A stretch of DNA of 64,000 nt from PVC group bacterium (GCA_024231215.1 JAAEQR010000142.1:228593-292592); one strand, 5' to 3'; shown: positions 5,150 to 27,761, counted from the stretch's first letter. Notes: generated from the letters alone by a model not told the origin. A program made the numbers and translations.

Positions 5150-6427
5150 TTACTCAGCATAATAAACTCTGTTGCGTCCAGCTCTTTTCGCCTCATAAAG
5201 CATCGCGTCAGCTTTTTGCAAAAGATCTTCCATTCCCAAATCGTTATCCGCAGGAGAGTGACGAACTGCCACCCCAACACTTATCGTAATCTTTACGAGT
5301 TTATTTCCCAACATAATAAACTCAGCGTTTTCCACATTAGCACGCAAACGTTCGGCTATAGAAAACTTACCGCCTTTTGTTTCCTCAAAACCAGGAAGAA
5401 CAACAACAAATTCTTCCCCCCCATAACGCGCACATATATCAGTAAGCCGCACACTATTATTCAGGATTTGTGCGATTTTTTTCAAAACCATATCGCCTTC
5501 CGGGTGGCCATAAGTATCATTGATCTCTTTAAAATGATCTATATCAATGATCAAAAAGCTTAACGGTATATTTTGACGATTGCAAAATTCTAACTCCTCT
5601 TTCATGCGTTTTTGCAAAAAAGTACGATTATAAAGTTGAGTGAGACGATCTACTGATGCAAGACCTCGATGGATAGCACTACCTAAAGCAATCGCCGCTT
5701 CCGAGACAAGCAAGAGGATAAACTCCTCCTCTCGTTTAAGTCGCAACGCCGCAGATTCTCCGCAAAACACAACGATTATGCCCCAAACCCGATCTTCCAA
5801 TATTAGCGGAATCATAGCTAACGCAGAAAGACGAGCAAGATGCGGCGGCCTGTCCTCTTTTAAAAAATATTTTATTTGAGTATCCTCTCCGAATATCTCA
5901 CTATTATTATCGGTATGAATTCTTTTTGATTTAATAACCTGCTTAATAATTTCATCAGTAGAACTAAACTCCATAGCCCTTAACATATTGCGATCAAAAT
6001 TTTTTCCCGTTACATAGGTGAAATCATCAGTACCTATATCCCGGGATAATATAAAACATTGACTCTCTCCCGTCATATCTTTTGTCAACTCCATAAAAGT
6101 ATCAACAATCAAACGCAACAATTGATCCTTACTTTTAGCGGAAGCAAGTTCTTTTCCGAAATTTTCTAACTGTTTAAAGTGTCTTTTCTGGTCTGCTTCC
6201 TTTTTTTTAATCTCTTTAAGCATCTCTTCTTTTTCATTCTGAAAAACAACAGTATTTTCTCTTAATTCTTTTGCTTGCTTACCAGCTAAGATTTTAGCCA
6301 TAACCGCTGCTGTAATAAACGGCACACTCACCACAATCAATGCCACAGACATCACTGGGTTAACAATTAAAAAAACTAACAGAAAAGTTACACCTACCCC
6401 CAATAATACAACTATAATTTTCCCCAT
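5150..6427 (-). CDS. Membrane-anchored GAF-GGDEF diguanylate cyclase
   Basis: Two N-terminal TM helices, a central GAF-like region, and a C-terminal GGDEF domain with intact GGEEF active site and RxxD I-site (RLTDICARYGGEEF). Confidence 0.85.
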   Translation of the reverse strand: MGKIIVVLLGVGVTFLLVFLIVNPVMSVALIVVSVPFITAAVMAKILAGKQAKELRENTVVFQNEKEEMLKEIKKKEADQKRHFKQLENFGKELASAKSKDQLLRLIVDTFMELTKDMTGESQCFILSRDIGTDDFTYVTGKNFDRNMLRAMEFSSTDEIIKQVIKSKRIHTDNNSEIFGEDTQIKYFLKEDRPPHLARLSALAMIPLILEDRVWGIIVVFCGESAALRLKREEEFILLLVSEAAIALGSAIHRGLASVDRLTQLYNRTFLQKRMKEELEFCNRQNIPLSFLIIDIDHFKEINDTYGHPEGDMVLKKIAQILNNSVRLTDICARYGGEEFVVVLPGFEETKGGKFSIAERLRANVENAEFIMLGNKLVKITISVGVAVRHSPADNDLGMEDLLQKADAMLYEAKRAGRNRVYYAE

Positions 6428-10850: not shown

Positions 10851-11384
10851 CTATCCCTCAATCGCTGCATCTTCCTGCTGTTTCCCCTCTTCCTTGCTTT
10901 CTGTTTGCGCTTTAGGTTCTTCCTCTTCAAAAAGATATTTATAAGGCTCTTCCATCTGTGGCTCCAGCGGATATTGCTGAAATCCGGCTTCTTCTTGAGT
11001 CATCTTACCCCATTGCTTCTGACCAGAAGTAATAGACTCATTATTCTCACGATGCTCTTCGGGTATAGCATCTTTATTCTGCGGATCTTCTATAAACGGA
11101 TCAACATACTTCTTTTCCATCTCTTTCGGGAAATAATAAGAATGTTTCGCTCTCTGTATCGGCGCCTGCGCCCTGGTCCCTAAAGGCGCTTTTGAGGGTG
11201 AACCATAATTAGTTTTATATATACGCACCGGCTTTTTATCAGTAACCTGATCCCCCGGCTTTTGGTCTTTTAATATCTGGGTTTTTTGAGATACACGCTG
11301 CATTGTATTACTCACGCCAAAAATAACAATAACAACTAATACCAAAGCTGCCGCAATTAAAATACTCTTTACTTTTTTATCCAT
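10851..11384 (-). CDS. Hypothetical membrane-anchored, acidic/disordered protein
   Basis: 177 aa with an N-terminal TM and a low-complexity Pro/Glu/Lys/Gln-rich remainder. No recognisable domain. Confidence 0.45.
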   Translation of the reverse strand: MDKKVKSILIAAALVLVVIVIFGVSNTMQRVSQKTQILKDQKPGDQVTDKKPVRIYKTNYGSPSKAPLGTRAQAPIQRAKHSYYFPKEMEKKYVDPFIEDPQNKDAIPEEHRENNESITSGQKQWGKMTQEEAGFQQYPLEPQMEEPYKYLFEEEEPKAQTESKEEGKQQEDAAIEG

Positions 11385-11688: not shown

Positions 11689-14427
11689 TTAAAAACTAAT
11701 TTGATTGAAAAAATCAATACTTACTTCTTGCCATAAAGACTCTGAACCTCCGAAGAAAACATCCGAAGGAGAGCGTGTAGCCGTCTTAAATCTTCGATCA
11801 TAGGACAAGTAAACTTTAGACGGAGATTTTAGAGCAAAATAACTTGTCCAGCTTCCGCCGACCTTTCTACCCCGGCTGCTCTGCCCTAAACTCGTCGATT
11901 TATACGATGAACTCCATTCATAATCTACAAAATCATATTTTGGAGCTGTGAATTCTCCGTTTTTATCCAAAATAAAAAATGCACCGGATAAAATTTTATC
12001 GCGGTCAACCGTCTTCTTATTTGCTGAATCCCAGTAACTCCAGTTCTCTAATGTTTCTCCCTTAGTTCCACGATTGCAGGCAAGAACCGTATTGTATTTA
12101 TGATGTTCATACACCCGGTTAGGCATCATACCATAAGTATAATTCTCTCCACTTGCCGGCCAGCTGAATGTAGCTGTCTTTGTACCGCTCGGATCGTGAT
12201 GCCAAAATAGACGCTTATAAGTATCGTCTTTACTAACAATTCCATTTTTAATATTTACTTCATTAGCATCTGATATAGATGGATAATAATCTTCCCATTG
12301 ATAATTTAGTCGCCAATGTTCAACCCAAAACCCGCCTCCTTTGTTTGGATCAGATTCTGCATAAATTCCGCTTGCCGCATCTTTCTTAACATACATATAA
12401 GGATAATCACGATAATGCGAAGTAGCCGGGCTTACCTGAGGATCATTGAAATCATCAGATAAGGTATATACCCTTTTCTTACTAACAATCGCGCTGGTCA
12501 CCCAGTCTGCTGTATTGTAATTTCCTTTCAGGTAAATATTTTCTTCTCCCAAAACCGTAAATCCATAATTTGCCATCTTACGCGGAAGTTTTTTCGCGTT
12601 TGCCAAACGTAAAGGAACTTTCGTATAAAGGATTCCGTTGTCCGGATAATTCCCGGCTTTTTGCATTTCATCTACATCTATTTCAAGAATCACATTCCAC
12701 TTATTCGTTCTTGTGTTAATAAATTCAACTTTTTTGGCTACATTATATGTATGTCCGTTATTTAAATCTGTTACTGCATCATCAATGCTTTTTTCAAGGA
12801 TATTCTGCCATTCGTTGTAGTCATTAAATTTACCGTCAAAATCTGTATGCAAATCAACATATAATCCGCCGCGTTCTGCCAACTTTGCATAGGCAGTATC
12901 AAATTCAGGCGGAGTCAAATATTCACCACCGGTATTACAATCCCGCACAATACCATCTAAACCAGCAGAATTCTTTAAAAAATCTTCCCATGCTGTCGGC
13001 TGTTTTTTTGTTTCTAAATGTTTTACCGGGATAGTTCCTCCACCCGCACGTTCATCTCCATATGTCCCGTCAAATACTACTTCAGGATTAAAAAAATCCG
13101 GCCAATCAGAATGACTCCCACGCGCTTTCCAATAATCAGGACTGCGAAACATCTCCCAATACGTTTTAGCATTCGGATGTTTTCCTAATTTAGATTTATC
13201 AACCCAAACCACCTTGCCTGATTCTATATCCCACCATGTATCTTTTACATCAACTTTCTTATTTCCTTTATCATATGTCCAGAAAGACACCGGAGTCTCG
13301 CTTGAGGCATCACCACTGCCATAAGCATCTCCTTTATACTTCTGCCACATCCAGGTCTCATCTATTTCTGCGGGAAGCTCATCCCATTTTCCGGAAATTA
13401 TTTCACCGGTATCTTCATCTATCCCCTCATAAGGCTGTAACCACAGATTGTATTTATTTAAAGGCTTACCACTATCATTCACCACCCCATAATAAGAAGA
13501 TCCTGATGGAATCTCATTCCAGGGCAGCCTATCCCCGCTAAAAGCCCATTCTGTAGAACGATACGCCTCTCCCGGAAAGTAAGCAGCAAAGTCCCTAGCT
13601 TGAGATCTCCAATTCCAATGCCGGGTGCCATATTTATCCCAAGAATAATATCCCCATGGACCCGGATCATCCTTACCATCTCTTCTAAAAACATCACCCG
13701 GGTCATCTAATCTCATGATCGGCGCTTTTCCGTCCATAGTCCCATCGTAACGATCAGCATAATAAGGCGCCGGATAGCGATCATAGCACTGGTAATAAAT
13801 AGTCCCTTCATCTCCTGTACTTAACTCACTGATATTTTCCAAGGCAACATGTGAATCTATCTTGATATTCCCGTTGGTATGAATTCCTCCCCCATTAAGC
13901 CTGGGATGACTTCCTACCGAATTATTAAGATCAATACTATATGGACTATAGAAAAAGAAATCATAAATACCCCTCCGACTCAAGGTACAGGTTACCGCAC
14001 GTTGTTCATTCCCATCCATCCCCATGGCTACAACCACAGTCTTGTCTTCATCAATCTGATCCTGATAAGCCTTGACCATAAAGGTTCCGTCATCAGATAT
14101 ATAAAACCCGCCCCCGTCAAAAGAACAATCCGTTCTAAGCTTCTGATGGTAACCGGAATCTGAAGAATCTACCGGCAACAATGTATCTCTATCATCATTC
14201 CATTTATGGGTATACCACTGAGATGCAAACTCCTGAGATTCATAGGTAGCATAAGCAAGTCCCATCTCTGCGAAACTAAGCGCTTTCTTCCCTTCCACTT
14301 CTTTAGTAACACTCTTACGCTCACTAATCACCAGCATAAATAAAGAGGCCGACACAACAATAAGAACAAACATTACAATGTAGGTTGAAATTAGGATAGT
14401 TCCCTTTTTATTTAGTAGTAGTCTCAT
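11689..14427 (-). CDS. Large PilX_N-domain protein, putative pilus tip-associated protein (PilY1/PilX-like)
   Basis: 912 aa. The N-terminus (KKGTILISTYIVMFVLIVVSASLFMLVISERKS...ALSFAEMGLAYA) resembles the PilX N-terminal pseudopilin-like domain. Trp/Tyr/Asp/Gly-rich, non-repetitive periplasmic region. Sits downstream of two minor pilins. Confidence 0.5.
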   Translation of the reverse strand: MRLLLNKKGTILISTYIVMFVLIVVSASLFMLVISERKSVTKEVEGKKALSFAEMGLAYATYESQEFASQWYTHKWNDDRDTLLPVDSSDSGYHQKLRTDCSFDGGGFYISDDGTFMVKAYQDQIDEDKTVVVAMGMDGNEQRAVTCTLSRRGIYDFFFYSPYSIDLNNSVGSHPRLNGGGIHTNGNIKIDSHVALENISELSTGDEGTIYYQCYDRYPAPYYADRYDGTMDGKAPIMRLDDPGDVFRRDGKDDPGPWGYYSWDKYGTRHWNWRSQARDFAAYFPGEAYRSTEWAFSGDRLPWNEIPSGSSYYGVVNDSGKPLNKYNLWLQPYEGIDEDTGEIISGKWDELPAEIDETWMWQKYKGDAYGSGDASSETPVSFWTYDKGNKKVDVKDTWWDIESGKVVWVDKSKLGKHPNAKTYWEMFRSPDYWKARGSHSDWPDFFNPEVVFDGTYGDERAGGGTIPVKHLETKKQPTAWEDFLKNSAGLDGIVRDCNTGGEYLTPPEFDTAYAKLAERGGLYVDLHTDFDGKFNDYNEWQNILEKSIDDAVTDLNNGHTYNVAKKVEFINTRTNKWNVILEIDVDEMQKAGNYPDNGILYTKVPLRLANAKKLPRKMANYGFTVLGEENIYLKGNYNTADWVTSAIVSKKRVYTLSDDFNDPQVSPATSHYRDYPYMYVKKDAASGIYAESDPNKGGGFWVEHWRLNYQWEDYYPSISDANEVNIKNGIVSKDDTYKRLFWHHDPSGTKTATFSWPASGENYTYGMMPNRVYEHHKYNTVLACNRGTKGETLENWSYWDSANKKTVDRDKILSGAFFILDKNGEFTAPKYDFVDYEWSSSYKSTSLGQSSRGRKVGGSWTSYFALKSPSKVYLSYDRRFKTATRSPSDVFFGGSESLWQEVSIDFFNQISF

Positions 14428-14439
14428 TGTCCCCTCCTT

Positions 14440-15084
14440 TTAATTGCGCCAGTACACCCTATTATTCAAGGTTATATTCAATGGATCACTCAAACATCGC
14501 CCTCTGAGTGTATCCTTTTCCGTCTTAATTTCAATCTCTACAAGTTCAATTAAAGAATCCACAACATACCCTTTTGATCCTGCATCATATTTATATCCTG
14601 TCACTTTAAAATCAGCTACATCTTCGGATGTTATAACCTGATCAATCAAAGTATTACTATCGTCCCAAACCCTGCGTAATATCTGGTTTGAGCTATCATC
14701 CCAACAATACTCAATAGACCAATCTATATTAGCTTCAGCTCCCCATTCAATCCGCCCATACGCATCCAAGCCCACCGGAACCTGAAAAACAATACTTTTA
14801 CCGGCATTAGGATTAGCTGCTGCCCCCCCCTGGTCTATAGGCATATCATATATTTCCGCATAGGTCCCCTTAGAAACTCTCATCTCCTTTACCATATCAT
14901 TAACAACTTTTCTAGCCTGTTTAGATATATCCCATTTGCCCAAGCACTGATCCGTAAAATAATTATGTGATATGAGAGCGCTGAACAATGTTCCGATCAC
15001 CACGGTATAAATTCCCAAAGACACAATCATCTCTGTTAAAGTAAAACCACTTTTATCCGTTAAATATCTTTTTTTAAATTTCAC
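14440..15084 (-). CDS. Minor pilin (prepilin-type N-terminal cleavage/methylation domain, PilW/FimT-like)
   Basis: SG|FTLTEMIVSLGIYTVVIGTLFSAL class III signal. Confidence 0.7.
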   Translation of the reverse strand: MKFKKRYLTDKSGFTLTEMIVSLGIYTVVIGTLFSALISHNYFTDQCLGKWDISKQARKVVNDMVKEMRVSKGTYAEIYDMPIDQGGAAANPNAGKSIVFQVPVGLDAYGRIEWGAEANIDWSIEYCWDDSSNQILRRVWDDSNTLIDQVITSEDVADFKVTGYKYDAGSKGYVVDSLIELVEIEIKTEKDTLRGRCLSDPLNITLNNRVYWRN

Positions 15085-15854: not shown

Positions 15855-17060
15855 CTATCCGATAAGTTCCCCAATCTTTAAAATCGGTAAGAACATAGCG
15901 ATAACAATACCCCCTACAACAATACCCAAAAAGGCGATAATCAGAGGCTCTATTAAACTCGTAAGACCGCTTACTGCCGTATCTACCTGATCTTCATAAA
16001 AATCAGCAATTTTGCTTAACATTTTTTCTAATTCGCCGGATTCTTCTCCCACCGTAATCATCCTTGTAACCATCGGTGGAAATGCTCTGCTTTTTGCCAA
16101 TGGAGCAGAAATGCTTTCTCCTTCTCTAATTCCAACTCTCGCACTATCAACCGCTCCTTCAATAACCGTATTACCGGATGTCTTTCCCACAATTTCCAAT
16201 GCCCCTAAAATCGGTACACCGCTTCTAATAAGTGTCGAAAGGGTCCGGGAAAATCTAGCTACAGCTACTTTTCGCAGCAGCGGCCCGAAAACAGGAATAT
16301 TCAATTTCATTTGGTCAAATCTCTTTTTACCCACAGGAGTTTGAATAATTTTGCCTATAATAAAAATAAATCCAACAAGCCCGATTACACAATAAATAAA
16401 ATATGCGCGAAGCATATCCGAAAAATTAATAAGCAGCTGAGTTGGAAGCGGCAAAGTACCTCCTAATGATTCAAATATCTCTTTAAATGTAGGAATAACC
16501 TTTAATAACAAAACCAGCGTAATCCCCATCGCCATCAGAGAAACAACTGCGGGATAAACCATAGCTGACTTTACTTTTCCAGCCAATTTATTACTCTTCT
16601 CTAAGTAGCCGGCAAGCCTGTCTAAAATTTCATCAAGCATACCACTTGTCTCTCCAGCTCTCACCATATTGGTATAAAGTAATGTGAAAATCTTTGGATG
16701 TTTCTCCAAAGCCGCTGATAAACTTGCCCCTGCTTCAACATCTCCTCTTACCTCGGTAACTACCTGCCTAAAGATAGGGCTTTCCAGCTGTTCGCTTAAG
16801 ATATCCAAACTCTGCACCAATGGAATACCTGCATTAACCATTGTCGCTAACTGCCGGGAAAAGATTACTAATTCTTCAGATTTTACCGTTTTATTACGAA
16901 CCTTCTTTATAATGCTGGATTTCTTTTGCTCTGTTACTGAAATGATAATTAAATTCTTAACCCTCAACATATCCAAGGCTATTGCTCTATCTTTTGCCTC
17001 AATTAAATCATTAATCGTATTTCCTTCTTCATCCTTGGCTACATATTTAAAATATGCCAT
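15855..17060 (-). CDS. pilC: Type IV pilus platform protein PilC (GspF family)
   Basis: MAYFKYVAKDEEGN... start with two GspF repeats. The track start at 17084 adds 8 residues. Confidence 0.9.
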   Translation of the reverse strand: MAYFKYVAKDEEGNTINDLIEAKDRAIALDMLRVKNLIIISVTEQKKSSIIKKVRNKTVKSEELVIFSRQLATMVNAGIPLVQSLDILSEQLESPIFRQVVTEVRGDVEAGASLSAALEKHPKIFTLLYTNMVRAGETSGMLDEILDRLAGYLEKSNKLAGKVKSAMVYPAVVSLMAMGITLVLLLKVIPTFKEIFESLGGTLPLPTQLLINFSDMLRAYFIYCVIGLVGFIFIIGKIIQTPVGKKRFDQMKLNIPVFGPLLRKVAVARFSRTLSTLIRSGVPILGALEIVGKTSGNTVIEGAVDSARVGIREGESISAPLAKSRAFPPMVTRMITVGEESGELEKMLSKIADFYEDQVDTAVSGLTSLIEPLIIAFLGIVVGGIVIAMFLPILKIGELIG

Positions 17061-17178
17061 ACAGCCTCCTTTTTTAAGCAACAAACAGCAATAAAATATC
17101 TAAAAATCATAATTTACAAATTACCAGCTACTATTTATAACTATTATATATTATTTCTTTTTATAAAGAAATATTTTT

Positions 17179-18909
17179 TTATTCCGCAGAGGTAACTCTC
17201 AGCACTTCTTCTAAAGTCGTCTTACCCGCCAAGAAATTAATTAACCCGGCATCACGCAAGGTTACCATATTACATTCTTTTTTAGCATAACGTTTAATTT
17301 CATCGCTAGAGGAACGATTCATAATCATTTCTCTTATCGAATCATTAACAACCATGATTTCAATCATGGCAAAACGCCCTCGATATCCGGAACCGCTGCA
17401 ATAATTACAACCTTTGCCTTTATATACCGTAATATCTTCACTTTTCTTATCTAATCCTAAACGATCCAATACCGACTGCGGCACTTCATACTGTTCCTTG
17501 CATTTATCACAAATTTTACGCGCAAGCCTTTGCGCAACCACAGCAACCACACTCGAAGAGATCAAAAAAGGCTCAATCCCCATATCAATAAGCCTGGTTA
17601 CTGCACCCGGGGCGTCATTTGTATGCAGTGTACTAAGAAGCATAGCTCCGGTCAAAGCCGCTTTTATTGCGATATCACCTGTTTCAAAATCCCGGATTTC
17701 CCCAACCATTAAAACATCAGGGTTTTGCCTTAATATTGAGCGCAATCCAGAAGAAAAAGTTAAACCAATATCCGGCTTAACCTGCACCTGAGTAATCCCT
17801 TCTACTTGATATTCAACCGGATCCTCAATTGTAATAAGATTTTTATCCGGAGTATTCAACCGATTAAGCACTGAATATAATGTGGTTGATTTACCGCTAC
17901 CCGTAGGCCCGGTAACCAAGATCATTCCATACGGCCGGTTAATCGCAAAATTGAAATTGGTCAAAGCCTCCGGCAGAAACCCTAAAGCTTCAAGCCCAAT
18001 ACTTAAATTGGCCTTATCTAAAGCACGCATAACTACTTTTTCACCAAAACTTATCGGTAATACAGAAACACGAAAATCAACTTCCTTCTTCTCAAATTTA
18101 ACTTTAAACCTTCCGTCCTGAGGAATAAGACGCTGGGTAATATCCAAATTTGACATTATCTTCAAACGAGCCGCGATCGCATTTTGAATTTTTTTTGGCA
18201 AAACCGCTGCCTCATGCAAAGCTCCATCGATGCGATATCTTACACGTATATTGTGCTCATAAGGCTCAATGTGAATATCCGATGCCCTCTTAAGTAAAGA
18301 TTCTGCAATTAAAGCATCGATCATTTTAACAATCGGAGCTTCTTCACTGGAACGAATTACATCTCCGATATCTACTTGATCCTGCTGACCTACAACCTCA
18401 ATATCTTCATCCTGAATATTTTTAACCAAGTCATCCAAAGAAGCAGCTGCTTTTTGAGCTTCGGCACCTGCAGGATGATACAACCTATTGATTGCCTTTC
18501 CCACCGTACCTAAAGAGCATACAGCCGGATTCACATCATAACCGGTAAGCGCCTTTATATCATCAACTGCCAATACATTCAGGGGATCACTCATCGCCAC
18601 AGTAAGAATATTACCCACATGAGATATAGCTAAAAGATGATAATGCTGTGCAACGTGCTCAGGAATAATTTTTATAAGTTTTTCCGGAGCTTTAAACTTT
18701 TCAAGATTAATAAGTGGAATGCTTAAATAATGACAGAAACAAACAGCAATGTCTTCCTCACTTACAAACTTTTCTTCCACTAATATAGCCGCTAGTTGAC
18801 CACCTTTTTGTTGTTGAATATTCAAGGCTTTGTCAATATCGTCTTTTTCTACCAGTTTGTAGTCAAGTAATAACTCATTAAGCCGTTTTTTAATTCTGCT
18901 TCTGCGCAT
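17179..18909 (-). CDS. pilB: Type IV pilus assembly ATPase PilB/GspE family, paralog 1
   Basis: MshEN-like N-terminal domain, Walker A GPTGSGKSTTLYS, Asp/His boxes, C-terminal tetracysteine. Confidence 0.85.
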   Translation of the reverse strand: MRRSRIKKRLNELLLDYKLVEKDDIDKALNIQQQKGGQLAAILVEEKFVSEEDIAVCFCHYLSIPLINLEKFKAPEKLIKIIPEHVAQHYHLLAISHVGNILTVAMSDPLNVLAVDDIKALTGYDVNPAVCSLGTVGKAINRLYHPAGAEAQKAAASLDDLVKNIQDEDIEVVGQQDQVDIGDVIRSSEEAPIVKMIDALIAESLLKRASDIHIEPYEHNIRVRYRIDGALHEAAVLPKKIQNAIAARLKIMSNLDITQRLIPQDGRFKVKFEKKEVDFRVSVLPISFGEKVVMRALDKANLSIGLEALGFLPEALTNFNFAINRPYGMILVTGPTGSGKSTTLYSVLNRLNTPDKNLITIEDPVEYQVEGITQVQVKPDIGLTFSSGLRSILRQNPDVLMVGEIRDFETGDIAIKAALTGAMLLSTLHTNDAPGAVTRLIDMGIEPFLISSSVVAVVAQRLARKICDKCKEQYEVPQSVLDRLGLDKKSEDITVYKGKGCNYCSGSGYRGRFAMIEIMVVNDSIREMIMNRSSSDEIKRYAKKECNMVTLRDAGLINFLAGKTTLEEVLRVTSAE

Positions 18910-18923
18910 AAAAATCTTTCTTC

Positions 18924-20639
18924 TTAGTCTGCTACGGTCAACCGCGTAATCTCTTCTAAAGTAGTAAGTCCTTTTAACACTTTAATAACTCCGTTCTCCC
19001 GTAACGTAACCATCCCTTCTTCGCGTGCTTTTTGCTTAATTATTCCTTCTTGGGCTTTTTTCATAACTAAGTCCCTGATATCAGGCGTAAATGGCAAAAC
19101 CTCACAAAGTCCCAACCTCCCCCAGTAACCGGTATTCTTGCATTTATTACATCCTTTTGCCCTAAAAACTTCTTTATGTTCTTCGGCAATATGAAATTTT
19201 TTTTTGATCTCCGGCGTAATCGGATAAGGCTCTTTACAAACCTGACAAATCTTACGAATCAATCGCTGCGCACAAACCACTAAGCAGGAAGATGTAATTA
19301 AAAATGGTTCTATCCCCATATTTACCATTCTTGTAACTGCACCGGCAGCTTCGGTAGTATGCAAAGTACTTAGAACCAAATGACCGGTTAACGCTGCCTT
19401 TATCGATATATCTAACGTTGCTGTGTCTCGTATTTCACCTACCATGATTATATCCGGATCCTGTCGCAAAAAAGAACGCAAAGCTCCGGAAAAGGTAAGC
19501 CCTACATCAGGATTAACGTTTACCTGATTTACCCCTTCCATCTGATACTCAACCGGATCTTCGGCGGTAACTACATTTAATTCCGGGTCATCCACATATC
19601 GCAATACAGAATAAAGAGTTGTTGATTTTCCACTGCCGGTGGGGCCCACAACAAGGATTAGTCCATGCGGCTCCTGCGCAAGTTTCTTTAATTTCTCCAT
19701 GGGTTTAGTCTCAAAACCCAAACTATCCAGATCCAAAATAACCGCGGTTTTATCCAAAACACGCAAAGCCACTTTCTCCCCATGACTTGACGGCATTATG
19801 GAAACACGGAAATCAACTTCCCGACCATGTATTTTAATTTTAAACCGGCCATCCTGAGGTAATCTGTGTTCAGCAATATTTAAAACAGACATGACTTTAA
19901 TACGCGAAACAATTGCCTCCTGCATTGACTGCGGCGGCGCAGGAAATTCCTGCAAAATCCCGTCAAGACGATAACGTATACGCAATCTTTTTTCCTGAGG
20001 TTCTATAAGGATATCACTCGCTCTGTTTTTTATTGCTTCAGCAAGAATCATGTTTGTTACCTTTACTACCGGAGTATCTTCTAGCTGTCTAAGCAATTCT
20101 TGGGTATTATCCGTTTTGACATCAACGTCTTCAGTATCCTGAAAGACTTCTATATCCATATCCTTTACATCTTCAATTATCGACTGCATTTGATCGTTGG
20201 TTGTAGTATTATAGTAATCTTCGATAGCTTTCTTAATGTCTTTTTCCGTCGCAATAACCACCTTAAGCTGATAATTAGTTAATACTTTAAGCTCATCAAT
20301 TGCCAAGATATTAAGCGGATCGACCATCGCCACGGTTAATATCTTACCAATCTTGGAAACCGCAATCGCCTGGTATTTATTCGCAAGCTCTTTTGGAATA
20401 ATTTGTACCACATCCTGGTTTATTTTAAATTTAGAGAGATTTATAGGAGGAATGTTTAGACTTTGACTTAAGACAATAACAAGGTCTTTCTGACTAATAT
20501 ACCCCATTGTTGTCAAAACTTCACTCAGACGTCTGCCGCTTTCTTTCTGAGAAGCAATTGCTTCATCCAACTGCTCCTTAGTCAAAAAATTGGACCTTGT
20601 TAAAACTTCCAGCATTTTTTCTTTTATGCCTTGAACCAT
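18924..20639 (-). CDS. pilB: Type IV pilus assembly ATPase PilB/GspE family, paralog 2
   Basis: N-terminal T2SSE_N-like domain, Walker A VVGPTGSGKSTTLYS, C-terminal tetracysteine (CQVCKEPY...CNKCKNTGYWGR). Confidence 0.85.
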   Translation of the reverse strand: MVQGIKEKMLEVLTRSNFLTKEQLDEAIASQKESGRRLSEVLTTMGYISQKDLVIVLSQSLNIPPINLSKFKINQDVVQIIPKELANKYQAIAVSKIGKILTVAMVDPLNILAIDELKVLTNYQLKVVIATEKDIKKAIEDYYNTTTNDQMQSIIEDVKDMDIEVFQDTEDVDVKTDNTQELLRQLEDTPVVKVTNMILAEAIKNRASDILIEPQEKRLRIRYRLDGILQEFPAPPQSMQEAIVSRIKVMSVLNIAEHRLPQDGRFKIKIHGREVDFRVSIMPSSHGEKVALRVLDKTAVILDLDSLGFETKPMEKLKKLAQEPHGLILVVGPTGSGKSTTLYSVLRYVDDPELNVVTAEDPVEYQMEGVNQVNVNPDVGLTFSGALRSFLRQDPDIIMVGEIRDTATLDISIKAALTGHLVLSTLHTTEAAGAVTRMVNMGIEPFLITSSCLVVCAQRLIRKICQVCKEPYPITPEIKKKFHIAEEHKEVFRAKGCNKCKNTGYWGRLGLCEVLPFTPDIRDLVMKKAQEGIIKQKAREEGMVTLRENGVIKVLKGLTTLEEITRLTVAD

Positions 20640-20663: not shown

Positions 20664-21272
20664 TTAGGCGTAGTATTTAGCTATCGCGTTATTAATATCC
20701 GAAAATGTGGAAATAAATGCTTCGACATCCAATTCCGTCATTTTCTTAATTTGGTCTTTTGCAGAGGTATTAAGAGGGTCGGCCATAGCCAGGGTAAGAA
20801 TATTGCCGATTTTATCTATCGGAATAAGCGAATATTTAACGGCAATATCTTTTGAGACAAGTTTTACTAGTTCTGCATCGATCTCATAATTTTCCAACTC
20901 TAGATAAGGAAACCCAAACTGAGTAACCAGAGCACTTACTAAATCTTCTTCACTAATATGTCCCAAATCAATACTGTGCTGAGATAATGCTCCCCCCTTA
21001 GTTTCCTGGAGTTTCACTGCTTCATCAAGCTGTTCCTGCGTAAGCATCCCCATTTCCAACAAAACATTTTCTAACTTCTGAGCCCGGTGAGTTTGCTCAT
21101 AAATACTTTCTTCAATTTGTTCACGTGTAACAAATTGAAGCTTAACTAAAATCTGTCCTACCAACCCCCCCTCTTGCAGCTGTACCTCCAACGCCTTCTG
21201 CAGCTGCTCCTGAGTAATTAGTTTTTTCTCAATTAAAATTTGGCCTATTGGTTTAGTTCTTGCCTTTTTCAA
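20664..21272 (-). CDS. Standalone T2SSE_N/MshEN-like domain protein, candidate c-di-GMP receptor
   Basis: 202 aa with no ATPase domain. Repeated 24-residue segments (PIGQILIEKKLITQEQLQKALEVQ; KLENVLLEMGMLTQEQLDEAVKLQ) fit the MshEN c-di-GMP-binding motif. C-terminal GSPII_E_N fold (ILTLAMADPLN). Confidence 0.6.
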   Translation of the reverse strand: MKKARTKPIGQILIEKKLITQEQLQKALEVQLQEGGLVGQILVKLQFVTREQIEESIYEQTHRAQKLENVLLEMGMLTQEQLDEAVKLQETKGGALSQHSIDLGHISEEDLVSALVTQFGFPYLELENYEIDAELVKLVSKDIAVKYSLIPIDKIGNILTLAMADPLNTSAKDQIKKMTELDVEAFISTFSDINNAIAKYYA

Positions 21273-21284
21273 TTTTACCTATCC

Positions 21285-22349
21285 CTATCTTTTGAACAAG
21301 CGGACTAAATCATCCGTGTCCGTTGAACGCGACATCGCTTCTTCATAAGAAATAAGCTTCCTGGTATACAAATCATATAGAGCCTGATTCATCGTCTGCA
21401 TATTATCTTTCTGTCCGGTCTGCATTATGGAATATATCTGATGCACTTTTTGTTCTCTGACCATACTTTTCACAGCCGGAGTAGCAACCATAACCTCAGA
21501 AGCCAATACACGACCGAATCCACCTACTTTAGGAATCAACTGCTGGGAAAGTATCCCTACCATAACAAAAGACAGCTGTGTACGTACCTGCTGTTGTTGA
21601 TGAGAAGGAAAAACATCAATAATTCGGTTAACTGTCTGAACCGCATCGGAAGTATGCAGAGTAGCAAACACCAAATGTCCGGTTTCCGCAATAGTTAAAG
21701 CAGCTTCTATCGTTTCTAAATCCCGCATTTCTCCGACAAGAATAACATCCGGATCCTGTCGCAAAATATGTTTTAAAGCCAGCGCAAAAGTTTTTGTATC
21801 TTGTCCAATTTCCCGCTGATCCACAACAGACAGTTTATTTGAGTGTACAAATTCTATAGGATCTTCCACGGTTATAATATGGCATGCGCGCTCTTCATTA
21901 ATTTTATCTACAATCGATGCCAAGGTTGTTGACTTTCCACTCCCCGTAGCTCCGGTTACAAGCACAAGCCCCTTTGGCTTACGAGCCAACTCCGTCACAA
22001 TTTTCACAGGTAATCCACATTCTGCAAAACTCAGAATTTTAAACGGAATAGCCCTAATCGCAGTTCCGACAAAGCCTCTTTGCCAAAAAACGTTCATACG
22101 AAAACGGCTCAATCCTTCTATCTCAAAAGAACGATCAAGTTCCCTGTTTTTTTCAAACTTTGCTATTTCTTCCGGATTCAAAACTCCATAAATAATCTCT
22201 TTGACATCTTCGCCGGATAAAGGCGACATATCCAATGAGACTATTTTCTCATCAATTCGTAAATGCGGTGGTGAATGTGCACTTAAATGAAGATCTGAAG
22301 CATTGCGTTCAATTAATACACGCAACATCTGAGATAATTCAGCTGCCAT
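21285..22349 (-). CDS. pilT: Twitching motility retraction ATPase PilT
   Basis: 354 aa with the PilT N-terminus ...RNASDLHLSAHSPPHLRIDEK, Walker A GATGSGKSTTLAS and AIRNLIRE-like segment. Confidence 0.9.
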   Translation of the reverse strand: MAAELSQMLRVLIERNASDLHLSAHSPPHLRIDEKIVSLDMSPLSGEDVKEIIYGVLNPEEIAKFEKNRELDRSFEIEGLSRFRMNVFWQRGFVGTAIRAIPFKILSFAECGLPVKIVTELARKPKGLVLVTGATGSGKSTTLASIVDKINEERACHIITVEDPIEFVHSNKLSVVDQREIGQDTKTFALALKHILRQDPDVILVGEMRDLETIEAALTIAETGHLVFATLHTSDAVQTVNRIIDVFPSHQQQQVRTQLSFVMVGILSQQLIPKVGGFGRVLASEVMVATPAVKSMVREQKVHQIYSIMQTGQKDNMQTMNQALYDLYTRKLISYEEAMSRSTDTDDLVRLFKR

Positions 22350-22758
22350 CTTTCTCCTCTTTTTTTTCTTCCGTACGTGATAAACCTTTATGGATTCTTA
22401 ATGCCGTATGAATCAACCGAGCTGCCTCTTCAAACCCTTTTTCTTTAGCAAAAAATCCGGAAATTCCAAGCTCTGTAGCTTGTTTCAGATTTTCCATTGT
22501 ACCGTATGCGCTAAAAATAACTATAGGAATTTGTTTATTAACCTGACGTATTGCGGTAAGTATTTCTATCCCATTCATCCCAGGGAGTTTTAAGTCAAGA
22601 AAAATAATCTGATAATCTCCCGTTTGAACCTGGTCTACTACTTTTTCTCCGCTATATAGCACATCTGCCTCAAAATCTCTGCTTTTGAGCCAAAATTGCA
22701 TCATATTTATGAAATCTACCTCATCATCCACTAGTAAAACTTTAATTTTCTCACTCAT
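22339..22758 (-). CDS. Single-domain response regulator (CheY/PilH-like receiver)
   Basis: 139 aa REC with the conserved DD, D and K positions. Lies between the two pilT paralogs. Confidence 0.8.
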   Translation of the reverse strand: MSEKIKVLLVDDEVDFINMMQFWLKSRDFEADVLYSGEKVVDQVQTGDYQIIFLDLKLPGMNGIEILTAIRQVNKQIPIVIFSAYGTMENLKQATELGISGFFAKEKGFEEAARLIHTALRIHKGLSRTEEKKEEKDGS

Positions 22759-22779: not shown

Positions 22780-23853
22780 TTAAGAACGACCAGACTTAAA
22801 AAAACGTTTAAAATCATCATGATCAGTTACGTATAAAGACGCATCCTGATAATTAATAATTCCCTGTTTATATAATTCAAATAAAGATTGATTCATTGTC
22901 CTCATGCCATCTTTCTGTCCTGTCTGTATCAATGAAAAAATCTGATGAATCTTTTCTTCTCTGATCATGGCTTTAACCCCAAAATTAGCTATCATTAATT
23001 CCGTAGCTAACGCTCTTCCCTGCTTATCTGCACGCGGAATTAATTGTTGTGAAATAGTAGCCAAAAGAACAAATGATAATTGCGTACGTACTTGTGCCTG
23101 CTGAGACGCAGGAAAAACATCCACAACACGATTAATTGTTTGCACACAGTCGGAGGTATGTAATGTAGCAAACACCAAATGCCCTGTTTCTGCGATATTT
23201 AATGCTGCCTGAATTGTCTCTAGATCTCTTAGCTCGCCGATCAAAATAACATCCGGATCTTGTCTTAACACATATTTCAGTGCCTCTCCGAAGGAATTAG
23301 TATCAGTACCGATCTCTCGCTGAGAAATTAAACTTTTTCTATTATCATGCACAAATTCAATAGGATCTTCTACAGTAACAATATGACATTGTCTCTCGGA
23401 ATTTATATGATTAACCATCGCCGAAAGAGTAGTAGTTTTACCTACCCCGGTAGCTCCGGTTACTAAAACCAATCCACTCTGGCTGCGGCAAATCTGTAAA
23501 ATTTGTTCTTCAGGAAGTCCCAATTCCCTAAAATGCGGCAAAGCACCAGGAATACACCGCAGCGACGCGCATACAGTACCCCGATGGAAAAACACATTCA
23601 TCCGAAAACGCCCTGCATTTTCAATATAGCACGATTTATCCAGTTCTTTATATGTTTCAAAATGTTTTATTTCATCGGGGGTAAGCATAGAATAAATAAG
23701 TAATTTAGAATCATCCGGAGATAGTTCCGGATAGTCTAAGATAAGCAATTTTGAGTCCACTCTTACCTGCGGAGGGCTATCGGTATGAATATGCAAATCC
23801 GATGCCCTTCGTTCGATCATGATTTTAGCGAGAGTTTCAATATTAAATTCCAT
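22780..23853 (-). CDS. PilT-family ATPase, second paralog (PilT/PilU)
   Basis: 357 aa with Walker A GATGVGKTTTLSA. PilT-like throughout. Confidence 0.85.
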   Translation of the reverse strand: MEFNIETLAKIMIERRASDLHIHTDSPPQVRVDSKLLILDYPELSPDDSKLLIYSMLTPDEIKHFETYKELDKSCYIENAGRFRMNVFFHRGTVCASLRCIPGALPHFRELGLPEEQILQICRSQSGLVLVTGATGVGKTTTLSAMVNHINSERQCHIVTVEDPIEFVHDNRKSLISQREIGTDTNSFGEALKYVLRQDPDVILIGELRDLETIQAALNIAETGHLVFATLHTSDCVQTINRVVDVFPASQQAQVRTQLSFVLLATISQQLIPRADKQGRALATELMIANFGVKAMIREEKIHQIFSLIQTGQKDGMRTMNQSLFELYKQGIINYQDASLYVTDHDDFKRFFKSGRS

Positions 23854-23915: not shown

Positions 23916-25679
23916 TCAACCAGTTAAACCCGGGGGGAGCAACTGATTATTTGCACCACAATCTATATGCCCCCAGGGCAATGATTCTGTCTGCTCCCGG
24001 GGTTTACACACATATTCCTGGGCACCAAGAGCATGTTGCCCCAATGCTTCTTTCCAAATATTAGAATTAAACATATTCGACCAGCCATCAAATCTAGCTC
24101 CCAATCGAAATGCTTTTTCCAGCACCACATGCAAGCTTCTATCTCCACGACATAGATACGCTTCTAAAAAACTCATTTTTACATCATGAAAGCTTATGTC
24201 AATATTTTTAGCTCTCAGTTTTGACCTCAAAAATTCCTGTTTATTTAAAAGAACGTCAGTTTTCTCCATACCCATCCATTGAAAAGGCGTATGCGGCTTG
24301 GGAATAAAATTAGAAATACTCACATTAATTTGTCCGCGCCTGCCATCAACTTCTTTTCTTAATAAAGTAAATTCTTTAACCAGCGCAACAATACTTTCTA
24401 AATCTTCTTCCGTTTCAGTCGGCAAACCGATCATAAAATAAAGTTTTAATTTCTTCCAGCCTAAACGGTATGCCTCTAAAACAGCTTCTTTTAAACGCTG
24501 AATATCAATCTGCTTGTTTATCAACCGGCGCAAACGTTCACTACCTGCTTCCGGAGCAAACGTCAGTCCGCTCTTTTTCAGTCCCCCCATTAAAGCAAGA
24601 ATACCGGAAAAATCCTTATTAACCCGCAACGACGGTAAAGAAATACCCACCCCTTTCTCCTGACATGATGAATGAAGCCGGCTAATAACCTCCTGCAAAT
24701 GCGGATAATTAGCACTGGAAAGCGCACAAAAAGAAATTTTCTCATAGCCGGTATTACGATATGACTCTTCTGCTAACTGAATCACTTTTTCCGCACTGCG
24801 TATACGAACTGGCTTGGTTACAAATCCCGCCTGACAAAAGAAACACTGGTTAGGACACCCTCTCATTATTTCCAAGCTAATCCGATCATGTACAATTTCA
24901 ACATACGGTACCGGCGGCGAAACAGGGAATTCTGCAGCATCTAAATCTTCCACATATCTTCTTTTTATACTGCAAGGGATATCCTGATCCCGGGCCGTAA
25001 CACTTACAATCATCCCATTCTCAACCTCAGGATTATAAAACCGAGGCACATAAACCCCCTCAATATTTGCGAGTTTTAATAATAACTTTTCTTTTGCTTG
25101 GGCATATACTTCTAAATCACTTTCCGGAATATGCGTAACAGTATCTTTAAACTCACGACAAGCGGCAACAAGCTCCAGAATCAACTCTTCGGCTTCTCCG
25201 ACAACAAAAACATCAATAAATTCTGCCATAGGTTCAGGATTATATGCGCAAGGCCCTCCGGCGATAATTAAAGGAGCTCGCACACGGTCTTTGGAATATA
25301 GGGGGATATTAGCCAGATCCAACATGTTCAGGACATTAGTAAAAGAAAGTTCATATTGCAGAGAAAAACCAATAACATCAAATTCCTGCAAAGAACGCTG
25401 GCTTTCTAAACTCATTAGGGGGATGGCTTGTTCTCGCAGGACTTTCTCCATATCAGTCCAGGGAGCAAAACAACGTTCGCAAAATACATCCTTTTGTTTA
25501 TTCAAGATATGATAAAGCACTTTCATGCCAAGATGACTCATACCTATTTCATAAACATCGGGAAAACATAAAACAAAGTTAAACGTATCCGGAGTTATCT
25601 CTTTATTTATACTATTAAATTCCCGGCCGATATATCGGCCCGGCTTTTGCACATCAAGTAAAAATTTTTCTATTTCCAT
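23916..25679 (-). CDS. Radical SAM protein with N-terminal B12-binding-like domain (TIGR03960-like)
   Basis: CPNQCFFCQAG radical-SAM cysteine motif. 587 aa. Confidence 0.7.
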   Translation of the reverse strand: MEIEKFLLDVQKPGRYIGREFNSINKEITPDTFNFVLCFPDVYEIGMSHLGMKVLYHILNKQKDVFCERCFAPWTDMEKVLREQAIPLMSLESQRSLQEFDVIGFSLQYELSFTNVLNMLDLANIPLYSKDRVRAPLIIAGGPCAYNPEPMAEFIDVFVVGEAEELILELVAACREFKDTVTHIPESDLEVYAQAKEKLLLKLANIEGVYVPRFYNPEVENGMIVSVTARDQDIPCSIKRRYVEDLDAAEFPVSPPVPYVEIVHDRISLEIMRGCPNQCFFCQAGFVTKPVRIRSAEKVIQLAEESYRNTGYEKISFCALSSANYPHLQEVISRLHSSCQEKGVGISLPSLRVNKDFSGILALMGGLKKSGLTFAPEAGSERLRRLINKQIDIQRLKEAVLEAYRLGWKKLKLYFMIGLPTETEEDLESIVALVKEFTLLRKEVDGRRGQINVSISNFIPKPHTPFQWMGMEKTDVLLNKQEFLRSKLRAKNIDISFHDVKMSFLEAYLCRGDRSLHVVLEKAFRLGARFDGWSNMFNSNIWKEALGQHALGAQEYVCKPREQTESLPWGHIDCGANNQLLPPGLTG

Positions 25680-27761
25680 TTAATCTCTAATATCCAAAAC
25701 TTCACGTTCTTTGGGCAAAACAAAATAGAACTGCGTTCCATTTCCATCTTCACTTTCTGCCCAAATTTTACCTCCATGCAAGCCAACTATTTCTTTTACG
25801 ATAGATAAGCCCAACCCTGTTCCTTTCGGAGATCCTGCAACAGGTACGGTTTTCGATTGCTCAAACTTTTCAAAAATACAATCTAAACTTTCTTTAGGAA
25901 TCCCGCAACCGGTATCTGAAACACAAATCTTTACCTCTTTGCCCATATCTTCCGCGGACAAGATAACCTTCCCGCCTTCCGGTGTAAATTTAACAGCATT
26001 ACCAATCAGATTGGTAAACACCTGATTTAACATTTTTGCATCTATATCCATATTCAGAGTATCTGGTATCTGTTTTTCCAAACTAATCCCACGGCTATTG
26101 GCCCAAACTCCCAGCATATCAACCACAGAATCAACCACAGTTACTAATGATGTACTCGCAAATTCTGCCTTCATCCTACCAGCTTCCAACTTCGCAACAT
26201 CCAGCAAATCATTAACTAATTCTGTTAAACGAGTCGCATTATTACTGGCAATCTCTAAGAACTGCTTTTGCTGAGGATCCAGTTTTTCCTTATCCGCAGT
26301 ATCCAAAATAAGGGATAAACTTTTCTGTATCGAAATCAAAGGCGCACGCAATTCGTGTGAAACATTAGAAACAAAAGCATCCTTCATTTTATTTACTTCT
26401 TTTTGCTTTGTAATATCACTTAAAACAGAAACCATACCAACGGTCTCTCCTTCTTCATTTTCAATAACCGCGCTACTCGCACGTAATGTCTTCTTTGTAT
26501 CCTCACTTGACCCGGCAAGTTCTATTTCGACATTATGCTGTTTATCTTTAGAGAGGCTTACAACATGTTCATCATGCAATCCTTCCAAAATATTCTGACC
26601 AATCTTACTTTCCTTATCAACCCCAAGCAAATCTTCTGCCGCCTGATTAAGCAGCATAACTTTACCGTCATTATCAACAATAACCAACCCCTCGGCAACA
26701 TGTTTTAAAACAGAGTTTATCCGATCTTTTTCTTTTTTGATTTTACGATTTTCATGAATCAATTCCTGCGTTACTTCTCCCACCTTTTCATCCACCATTC
26801 CATCTACATTTTTTAACTTGCTTTTAAGTGCAACATTCTCTTCCTGCAACTTTTTCAATTGGCTTACCATTTGCTGCTTTGTAACTTTGGGCTGTTTTAA
26901 TTTTATCGTCTCAGTCTTTACTTTATCTAAATACGGAGCCTGTTCGTCTTCCGATAACCCGGCTTTATCAAAACGTTCTTTGATTATTTTGATAACCTCT
27001 TCTACGGCTTTTTGAGGACCAACTAATTTAAGTAGCTGCTTTACAAGACGCTTGGTGTGTTTTTTAAACTCGAGCGAGATCAACTCTTTCTCCGGAACAA
27101 CATCTGATTTGCCTCCCAGAAAATCACTTACCATTCCAACTATATCTTTGCCCTTCTTCCCCTCAGGGGCTCCCTCTCCTTCTACGGCAGGAACAACACC
27201 CCCTGGAACATCACCACCGCCACCGCCACCGCCATCGCCTTTTTGTTTCACTTCTTCATCTTCTGTAATCCGGGCATAACGAACTTCTATTATCTGAATA
27301 TTTGTTATCTGATCATCAATAATCGCCTGTTTAAGACCACCTCTTTTCTCAAGCTCTTCCGGTTTCTGAACCAGTAATCGCAAAAATTTTTCCAACTCCT
27401 CTGCCCCAAAATCCTGTTTAAAAAGCAGCCCCTGAATACTAAACTTTTTTAAGTTAACAATCAAATTCTTTGAAGCATCTGCTGCTTCTTCCAACACTTC
27501 CTCATAAAGCATTACATTATTATCCATCATATCAATCGACATATCCCCAAACTTTGAGACAAATAAAGTAATTTCTGTGGTTGCTTTCTCAATAGCTCCT
27601 TTTACCATCGGATGAGTCGCCGGATACAATGGAATCATACGCAATGCAGAAGAAAATGCTTTAAACATATCCAGAACTGCTTTTTTTTGCTGTCTTGGGT
27701 TCTGCTGTAAAGCTTCTTTAAACAGATTAGGTTCCTGATTATTTTGATTTTCGGCACTCAT
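25680..27761 (-). CDS. Cytoplasmic PAS sensor histidine kinase
   Basis: No TM. Poly-Gly linker (GDGGGGGGGD), coiled coil, PAS, HisKA (SHELRAPL), HATPase_c. Confidence 0.8.
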   Translation of the reverse strand: MSAENQNNQEPNLFKEALQQNPRQQKKAVLDMFKAFSSALRMIPLYPATHPMVKGAIEKATTEITLFVSKFGDMSIDMMDNNVMLYEEVLEEAADASKNLIVNLKKFSIQGLLFKQDFGAEELEKFLRLLVQKPEELEKRGGLKQAIIDDQITNIQIIEVRYARITEDEEVKQKGDGGGGGGGDVPGGVVPAVEGEGAPEGKKGKDIVGMVSDFLGGKSDVVPEKELISLEFKKHTKRLVKQLLKLVGPQKAVEEVIKIIKERFDKAGLSEDEQAPYLDKVKTETIKLKQPKVTKQQMVSQLKKLQEENVALKSKLKNVDGMVDEKVGEVTQELIHENRKIKKEKDRINSVLKHVAEGLVIVDNDGKVMLLNQAAEDLLGVDKESKIGQNILEGLHDEHVVSLSKDKQHNVEIELAGSSEDTKKTLRASSAVIENEEGETVGMVSVLSDITKQKEVNKMKDAFVSNVSHELRAPLISIQKSLSLILDTADKEKLDPQQKQFLEIASNNATRLTELVNDLLDVAKLEAGRMKAEFASTSLVTVVDSVVDMLGVWANSRGISLEKQIPDTLNMDIDAKMLNQVFTNLIGNAVKFTPEGGKVILSAEDMGKEVKICVSDTGCGIPKESLDCIFEKFEQSKTVPVAGSPKGTGLGLSIVKEIVGLHGGKIWAESEDGNGTQFYFVLPKEREVLDIRD

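Follow-up and report, generated by a model that had tools for sequence, protein, structure and literature searches.

We analyzed a 64,000-nucleotide (nt) stretch of the genome of an uncultivated PVC group bacterium from the phylum Omnitrophota (GCA_024231215.1 JAAEQR010000142.1:228593-292592), referred to below as the window, which contains one large type IVa pilus gene cluster on its minus strand. Between the genes for the retraction ATPase PilT and the extension ATPase PilB, this cluster encodes a stand-alone MshEN protein of 202 amino acids (aa). Our best reading, held with moderate confidence and drawn from sequence comparison, is that this protein is a trans-acting receptor of cyclic di-GMP (c-di-GMP) for the pilus motor. 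The underlying pattern has three parts: a free MshEN protein that appears sensor competent lies beside two PilB ATPases that appear sensor dead, a GGDEF-family gene is a neighbor in most genomes, and a canonical diguanylate cyclase is encoded in this cluster. This pattern suggests that c-di-GMP sensing moved from the motor to a separate protein, and it gives a concrete hypothesis, that of a trans-acting, MshEN-based c-di-GMP switch on the pilus motor. A first-pass annotation, made from the DNA sequence alone, had described the gene as encoding a stand-alone, tandem MshEN-like protein between pilB and pilT and a candidate c-di-GMP receptor. The whole description was upheld, the last point at the level of a candidate predicted from sequence.

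The stand-alone protein belongs to the MshEN family and lacks an ATPase domain

The open reading frame (ORF) is located on the minus strand at positions 20664-21272, stop codon included, and starts with TTG. The MKK..K N terminus of its product is conserved among homologues, and the counterpart in locus L001 likewise has a non-ATG start codon. The protein is 100% identical to the hypothetical protein GY853_08230, deposited at NCBI from a metagenome-assembled genome of a PVC group bacterium. The gene and the parts of its product are as follows.

20664..21272, minus strand: stand-alone MshEN protein, 202 aa (ORF call, matches to PF05157 and NF053729)
21093..21251, minus strand: MshEN_N module 1 (aa 8-60), a four-helix bundle predicted to bind c-di-GMP; it holds motifs 1 and 2, joined by the linker LQEGG
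20919..21077, minus strand: MshEN_N module 2 (aa 66-118), a degenerate copy whose contact glycines are replaced by E68 and S97; it holds motifs 3 and 4, joined by the linker ETKGG
20667..20918, minus strand: MshEN_C (T2SSE_N1) alpha/beta subdomain (aa 119-202), PF05157, with a conserved Asp165-Pro166

The family relationship read from the sequence in the first-pass annotation was confirmed by profile searches. The Pfam MshEN model PF05157 matched aa 119-202 with an E value of 2e-20 (73 bits; cutoff, 23.1). Furthermore, NCBIfam NF053729, which describes a 53-aa MshE-related c-di-GMP-binding domain, matched in two stretches with 91.6 bits (cutoff, 38; E value, 1.9e-26), a score far beyond chance. 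The Pfam scan revealed no match to the T2SSE ATPase domain (PF00437), as the first-pass annotation had claimed, nor to PilZ, EAL, or GGDEF domains, and the ORF ends after aa 202. Thus, the protein is not a PilB- or MshE-type ATPase. Likenesses of the helical repeats to FumaraseC_C, DUF4388, and NHase_alpha stayed below the Pfam gathering cutoffs and were rejected as spurious resemblance of LTxEQLxxAL helices.

The motifs are arranged in a 2+2 layout (aa 8-31/37-60, then aa 66-89/95-118), each pair consisting of 24-residue motifs separated by a 5-residue linker. The three motif peptides quoted in the first-pass annotation are all present (PIGQ...EVQ at aa 8-31, GGLVGQ...YEQ at aa 35-60, and KLEN...KLQ at aa 66-89). 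The second, described like the others as a 24-residue segment, in fact comprises 26 aa because it includes two linker glycines, and a fourth motif, ALSQHSIDLGHISEEDLVSALVTQ (aa 95-118), had been overlooked.

An AlphaFold2 model built with 42 homologues (mean predicted local distance difference test score, 85.8) showed two four-helix bundles followed by an alpha/beta domain, with helices at aa 9-62 and 66-119, a low-confidence hinge at 62-65, and strands and helices at 133-200. Foldseek matches of this model at E values below 0.001 were exclusively MshEN/GSPII domains. The top matches were PilF GSPII-A and -B, MshE with c-di-GMP (5HTL), and the Xanthomonas citri PilB-N/PilZ complex, with XpsE-N also among the matches; the PDB entries matched by fold include 5HTL, 8PDK, 9G1W, 7LKM, and 2BH1 (EpsE-EpsL). 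In sequence searches, the PDB matches were PilF, PilB N-terminal domains, and MshE. Membership in the MshEN domain family is therefore given by profile, motif layout, and fold, and we are nearly certain that this is a stand-alone MshEN protein.

Module 1 retains the c-di-GMP contact residues and module 2 has lost them

In MshEN domains of known structure, guanine is bonded by the backbone NH of the position-3 Gly and by that of the residue after it, and the ribose-phosphate by the position-24 Gln. Each base has three hydrophobic residues stacked beneath it and the position-1 residue stacked above it (PMC5013675; PMC11731258). Exchange of the position-3 Gly for Ala lowers affinity 10- to 30-fold, and the terminal Gln residues are needed (PMC12002112). 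Module 1 aligned without gaps to residues 8-58 of MshE, placing P8/I9/G10 opposite R9/L10/G11 and L37/V38/G39 opposite R38/L39/G40. All 39 members of the window's clade share K7, G10, Q31, L37, G39, and Q60, and module 1 thus has Gly3 and Gln24 in both motifs in all of them; module 2 does not. In the clade alignment, module 2 carries E68 in 39/39 sequences, A, S, T, or P (never G) at position 97, and Q89 in 23/39, and its hydrophobic position is often polar. In line with this, a hidden Markov model (HMM) of the 53-residue module scored module 1 with 70.8 bits and module 2 with 40.9 bits. Module 1 is likely where c-di-GMP binds, as predicted from its sequence, and module 2 is probably a degenerate, nonbinding copy. 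That all four motifs are working sites in the window's clade was ruled out by E68 and A/S97. The first-pass annotation had fitted its motifs to the MshEN consensus; this holds for the glycines of module 1, but motifs 3 and 4 lack the position-3 glycine.

The first-pass annotation had also named Arg, Gly, and Gln as the positions whose conservation matters. The Gly and Gln residues of module 1 (G10, G39, Q31, and Q60) are indeed conserved, but the Arg positions are not, being occupied by P8 or Gln in motif 1 and by L37 in motif 2. The missing Arg need not prevent binding, since PilF GSPII-B has Lys and Leu at motif position 1 and binds c-di-GMP at 6 nM, showing that Arg is not essential (PMC11731258). 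The position-1 stacking residue of motif 2 is L37 in 39/39 sequences and corresponds to L196 of PilF GSPII-B. In motif 1, P8 of the window protein is replaced by Gln in 34/39 sequences, and the invariant K7 directly precedes the motif. Pro at position 1 of one motif is also found in PilF GSPII-C, which still binds (PMC11731258), and it is permitted by the relaxed pattern of Wang (PMC5013675). Furthermore, isolated MshEN_N binds c-di-GMP at 0.35 µM without MshEN_C (PMC5013675), and therefore module 1 need not touch the C-terminal subdomain. For the binding rules of MshEN domains, these proteins offer natural variants in which motif position 1 is Gln or Pro and a contact Gly has given way to an invariant Glu.

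Both neighboring PilB ATPases have degenerate N-terminal motifs

The position between pilT (21285-22349) and pilB (18924-20639) given in the first-pass annotation agrees with the gene coordinates. The gaps are 12 nt from the pilT stop to the MshEN start and 24 nt from the MshEN end to the first pilB gene, pilB-a. The flanking ATPase genes are as follows.

21285..22349, minus strand: pilT, retraction ATPase, 354 aa (PF00437), upstream of the MshEN gene
18924..20639, minus strand: pilB-a, extension ATPase (TIGR02538, 641 bits), 24 nt downstream of the MshEN gene
17179..18909, minus strand: pilB-b, second, tandem extension-ATPase paralogue (TIGR02538, 646.6 bits)

The first-pass annotation had reported related N-terminal domains in the PilB paralogues, and the peptide quoted as an example, RLNELLLDYKLVEKDDIDKALNIQ, was found in the second pilB (17179-18909). 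A neutral pairwise alignment to Geobacter PilB, in which the motifs are intact, revealed that the N-terminal motifs of PilB-a are degenerate (G to L, G to S, and Q to S). Direct reading of the PilB-b sequence showed the same for this protein (G to N, G to A, and Q to Y). In a phylum-wide table, Gly3 and Gln24 were present in both motifs of 81/84 stand-alone proteins but in 0/84 first PilB and 0/74 second PilB proteins, although the table was made with an HMM trained on the stand-alone sequences and may carry an alignment bias. Judged from these sequences, both PilB ATPases have lost the c-di-GMP contact residues, here and across the phylum, and the idea of a sensor acting in trans is therefore strengthened. 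Since the PilB domains keep the fold without these residues, their invariance in the free protein argues for ligand binding; on the sequence level, this invariance of residues dispensable for the fold is the strongest computational argument for a ligand.

The stand-alone protein is itself related to these domains. Its residues 65-202 are 40% identical to aa 7-143 of PilB-a and 32% identical to the N terminus of PilB-b, which identifies it, by sequence, as a PilB N-terminal-domain paralogue to which one more 53-residue bundle is added at the N terminus. Tandem pilB paralogues, both with degenerate MshEN motifs, were observed in 74/84 Omnitrophota loci.

The MshEN-pilB-pilB-pilC order is conserved across Omnitrophota

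Gene order was compared in 86 related loci. Six of these were located by looking up the exact protein, and the other 80 were taken from genomes representing one GTDB species each. A stand-alone MshEN ORF was located directly upstream of PilB in 84/86 loci, and a second PilB followed in 74/84. The order stand-alone MshEN, PilB, PilB, PilC recurs in Omnitrophota loci, with a median gap of approximately 10 nt to pilB. A second stand-alone MshEN ORF (142-174 aa) was detected between the second pilB and pilC in nine loci (L044, L045, L057, L058, L069, L076, L079, L082, and L084).

Upstream neighbors were counted in those 67 loci whose upstream sequence extends for 3 kb or more. In 26/67 of them the upstream neighbor was pilT, and in 46/67 a GGDEF-family gene was present at most two genes upstream. 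The genes usually follow the order radical SAM, GGDEF, (PilT), MshEN, PilB, PilB, PilC. The syntenic GGDEF neighbor is a membrane-anchored (HAMP/GAF-)GGDEF protein, found in L003-L006 and 49 further loci. Its signature motif is noncanonical in nearly all of 53 neighbors (GDDEF in eight, SGDEF in four, many other variants, and GGDEF in one), and the RxxD I-site is kept in 9 of 54 aligned sequences, comprising these neighbors and the cyclase of the window. In the window's clade (the window, L001, L002, and L008), the position of the GGDEF gene is taken by PilT-REC-PilT and a histidine kinase. L003, which has two intact modules, keeps the GGDEF neighbor; PilT-REC-PilT goes with the old duplication in which module 2 is degenerate. 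The noncanonical active site and the absence from this position in the window's clade weaken the candidacy of the syntenic gene as a local diguanylate cyclase. From its sequence, the protein may instead be a degenerate receptor or scaffold.

The window has its own cyclase gene elsewhere in the pilus cluster:

5150..6427, minus strand: GAF-GGDEF diguanylate cyclase (PF00990, E value 9e-47), with canonical GGEEF and an RLTD I-site (motifs from alignment)

Because this protein has canonical GGEEF and RLTD motifs, the organism very probably makes c-di-GMP, and it would do so from a gene inside the pilus cluster. The GAF-GGDEF protein aligned over its full length with the degenerate GGDEF neighbors of other loci and may, judged by this alignment, be a relocated, still-active relative of them.

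The family is widespread and its sensor bundle was duplicated repeatedly

The window protein has approximately 40 full-length homologues of 202-206 aa with identities of 56-75%, and a few more distant long forms with 41-48%; the mean column identity in the window's clade is 71%. A profile of the shorter relatives retrieved more than 1,200 protein clusters at 90% identity (E value of at most 1e-5). Among the 120 matches listed, the proteins are 145-250 aa long and have PF05157 only, without an ATPase domain, and the named ones are all from Omnitrophota. They include a 149-aa protein of "Ca. Velamenicoccus archaeovorus," an organism from an enrichment culture.

The usual form in the phylum has about 148 aa and consists of one intact module and MshEN_C. 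The two-module form is rare and was found, among the loci, in the window, L001-L003, L007, and L008. The two modules are 70% identical to each other in P0042 (L003 8001-8612) and 77% in P0044, with all four motifs intact, versus 28-40% in the window's clade. Sequence comparison thus indicates that the bundle duplication arose more than once, in the window's clade, in P0042, and in P0044. The duplications in P0042 and P0044 are independent and recent tandem events, and such proteins could bind two c-di-GMP molecules each. Other relatives (P0102, P0104; L087 635-1642) have approximately 310-335 aa and combine an MshEN domain whose second motif is degenerate with a C-terminal region that has a faint PilZ match. 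The MshEN-PilZ fusion P0102 was rejected as a context clue, as its locus, the one examined for these fusions, is not a pilus locus and is uninformative.

A trans-acting c-di-GMP receptor is the best reading of the data

In the proposed mechanism, module 1 would bind one c-di-GMP molecule in the mode of MshE and PilF. The guanines would be contacted by the backbone NH of G10 and G39 and the ribose-phosphate by Q31 and Q60, with L37 and the hydrophobic triads stacking on the bases. Docking on the PilB paralogues, or on the PilM/PilC platform used by them, would be the task of the PilB-like part (module 2 and MshEN_C), and cellular c-di-GMP would tune pilus extension versus retraction in trans. 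A likely c-di-GMP source would be the GAF-GGDEF cyclase of the pilus cluster. By analogy with MshE, PilB2, and PilF, our guess is that high c-di-GMP favors extension. On the sequence data we consider c-di-GMP binding by the stand-alone protein fairly likely, and the pilus motor is its probable target.

Several observations weigh against this proposal. The Pro/Gln start of motif 1 lies outside the experimentally validated R/K/L set, and an engineered PilF GSPII-A with Ser at position 1 no longer binds (PMC12002112). Even a perfect consensus is not sufficient, because the domain context can block binding (PMC12002112). NF053729 also scores both PilB proteins just above its cutoff (47.1 and 40.6 versus 38), and therefore HMM membership alone cannot separate binders from nonbinders; the possible alignment bias of the phylum-wide motif table belongs here as well. 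Furthermore, the syntenic GGDEF neighbor is mostly noncanonical, and the window's clade lacks it at this position, so that it does not cleanly point to a local source of c-di-GMP. Finally, no EAL, HD-GYP, or PilZ gene was detected among the window ORFs scanned, and the absence of EAL and HD-GYP genes counts on the same side.

A broader scheme for Omnitrophota can be offered, but as a whole it is doubtful. In this scheme, the extension ATPase would have handed its c-di-GMP sensing over to a subunit with a gene of its own. In a multipart motor, the stand-alone MshEN protein would be the sole c-di-GMP-competent GSPII module, accompanied by two sensor-dead PilBs and often by a catalytically degenerate membrane GGDEF protein. 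It might act as a c-di-GMP-controlled selector or clutch that chooses PilB-a, PilB-b, or PilT at the platform, and the repeated bundle duplication might tune stoichiometry or response range.

The protein could also be a ligand-independent adaptor or decoy that binds constitutively to the PilM/PilC platform or to the PilB hexamer and sets stoichiometry or the choice of PilB. The identity of aa 65-202 to the N termini of PilB-a (40%) and PilB-b (32%) fits this, as does the known use of T2SSE_N1-type domains as protein-docking modules in EpsE-EpsL (2BH1) and X. citri PilB-N/PilZ (7LKM). The loss of the contact glycines from module 2 and the finding that a consensus motif does not guarantee binding (PMC12002112) point in the same direction. 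However, the contact residues of module 1 are invariant in 39/39 sequences and are kept in 81/84 stand-alone proteins, whereas the same fold in PilB tolerates their loss. This pattern is hard to explain without a ligand, and we regard an adaptor of this kind as unlikely.

Another explanation is that the protein is a c-di-GMP receptor with an output other than PilB/PilT, such as transcription, secretion, or adhesion, via the conserved GGDEF-family membrane protein or the response regulator, or that it senses a different dinucleotide such as cGAMP. MshEN domains do occur in many nonpilus architectures, including NfrB, REC, CheA, and HD-GYP fusions (Wang 2016), VcMshEN binds cGAMP weakly (PMC5013675), relatives with an MshEN-PilZ fusion are encoded outside pilus loci, and the stand-alone PA3740 affects swarming (Wang et al. 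2016). However, the gene lies immediately upstream of pilB-pilB-pilC in 84/86 loci, with the median gap of only approximately 10 nt, and the C-terminal two-thirds of the protein is a paralogue of the PilB N terminus. The adjacency, fixed across the phylum, points to the pilus ATPases, and a different output or ligand is distinctly improbable.

The likeness of the ORF to the PilB N terminus and its place just upstream of pilB might suggest an artefact, either a 5' piece of pilB cut off by a split or a frameshift or a pseudogene in decay. This can be dismissed: the downstream PilB is complete and matches TIGR02538 over aa 9-569, which includes an N-terminal domain of its own, and the ORF has its own start and stop, is separate in 84 of the 86 loci, belongs to a family of more than 1,200 clusters, and has the 71% mean column identity given above. 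The missed frameshift that the first-pass annotation had named as a possible objection was therefore not found.

Comparison of the proposed receptor with known systems

The stand-alone protein resembles Vibrio cholerae MshE (5HTL) in combining a four-helix MshEN_N with an alpha/beta MshEN_C, in the 24+5+24 motif layout, and in the c-di-GMP-contacting Gly3, Gln24, and hydrophobic positions kept by module 1. Unlike MshE, it has no fused T2SSE ATPase, it has two MshEN_N modules of which the second is degenerate, and it has Pro/Gln and Leu in the place of the stacking Arg residues. PilF gave the best PDB sequence match (PilF 303-446 versus aa 36-177). The lack of Arg at position 1 is shared with PilF GSPII-B (Lys/Leu there, L37 here), and the position-1 Pro is shared with GSPII-C (P8 here), which also has an extra third motif. 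The PilF domains, however, are triplicate and fused to the ATPase, whereas here a separate polypeptide is encoded beside two ATPases with degenerate domains.

MshEN is a known, widespread receptor domain, and the general idea of a stand-alone MshEN protein is not new. Pseudomonas aeruginosa PA3740 consists of a stand-alone MshEN and a divergent T2SSE_N1, binds c-di-GMP, and affects swarming, and Cyanothece cce_1044 is a stand-alone (MshEN_N)2 protein (Wang et al. 2016, Supplementary Table 4). The window protein shares with both the MshEN-only composition without an ATPase or other output domain, and with cce_1044 the tandem MshEN_N. It differs from them, according to their descriptions, in joining (MshEN_N)2 and a canonical MshEN_C in one free protein, a combination absent from the Wang table. 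The C-terminal subdomain of PA3740 is described as divergent, whereas that of the window protein is a canonical PF05157 match.

The arrangement proposed here, a separate receptor acting in trans on a nonbinding PilB, resembles the FimX(-PilZ)-PilB system of Xanthomonas and Pseudomonas, where the N-terminal domain of PilB is the docking site (7LKM; PMC5595344). The likeness is functional only: that system relies on a degenerate GGDEF-EAL receptor, with PilZ as the adaptor, and there is no homology to the paralogue of the PilB N terminus found here.

The following features appear to be newly described here: the gene keeps a fixed place beside two PilBs that are sensor dead, it is conserved throughout the phylum, it is associated with a degenerate GGDEF protein, and the sensor bundle was duplicated more than once. 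Our literature search, which covered sources outside subscription journals, found no account of a pilB-adjacent stand-alone MshEN protein or of c-di-GMP in Omnitrophota and nothing on the regulation of Omnitrophota pili. In the lifestyle of these uncultivated bacteria, which is attached and perhaps predatory or parasitic, type IV pili are considered to play a central part (PMC10066038). If the proposal is true, it would add a third design of c-di-GMP control of pili to the fused MshEN-PilB proteins and the FimX/PilZ adaptors. If c-di-GMP is not bound, the protein would be merely a PilB-N-terminal-like accessory protein of limited interest.

Pilus cluster and operon context

The cluster starts with genes for a PAS histidine kinase (25680-27761, minus strand) and a radical-SAM protein (23916-25679, minus strand; Radical_SAM_N2 with a weak B12-binding-like match), followed by pilT2, a response regulator, pilT, the MshEN gene, pilB-a, pilB-b, and pilC. 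After pilC come two pilin-like genes, a gene for a 912-aa protein, PilS- and PilR-like regulators, two pilin genes, the GAF-GGDEF gene, pilM, pilO, and pilQ. The radical-SAM gene keeps its place directly upstream of the pilus regulatory genes in the majority of Omnitrophota loci. The remaining features around the MshEN gene are as follows.

23919-23891, minus strand: sigma-70-like promoter, TTGACA-17-TATAGT (11/12 matches, upstream TG), just upstream of pilT2
22780..23853, minus strand: second pilT paralogue, pilT2 (PF00437)
22339..22758, minus strand: single-domain response regulator between the two pilT genes (PF00072, E value 9.8e-25)
15855..17084, minus strand: pilC, platform protein (PF00482 T2SSF, E value 1.3e-65)

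The promoter-like site of pilT2 is the best sigma-70-like match in the region, and its location is consistent with a single transcript from pilT2 through pilC. The search for intrinsic terminators around the MshEN gene yielded one weak match, located inside the ORF; in the whole region, three were found versus 5.0 expected from shuffled sequences.

Three minus-strand proteins encoded inside the cluster had no Pfam match, the 912-aa protein (11689-14427) and two proteins of 214 aa (14440-15084) and 177 aa (10851-11384). A counterpart of the 912-aa protein with approximately 910 aa is encoded after the pilin-like genes in L001 and L002; this protein may be a pilus tip or adhesin component. The pilM ORF (3465-5132, minus strand) encodes 555 aa, of which the PilM_2 model spans aa 41-336 only, and the C-terminal approximately 220 aa may be a fused PilN-like part.

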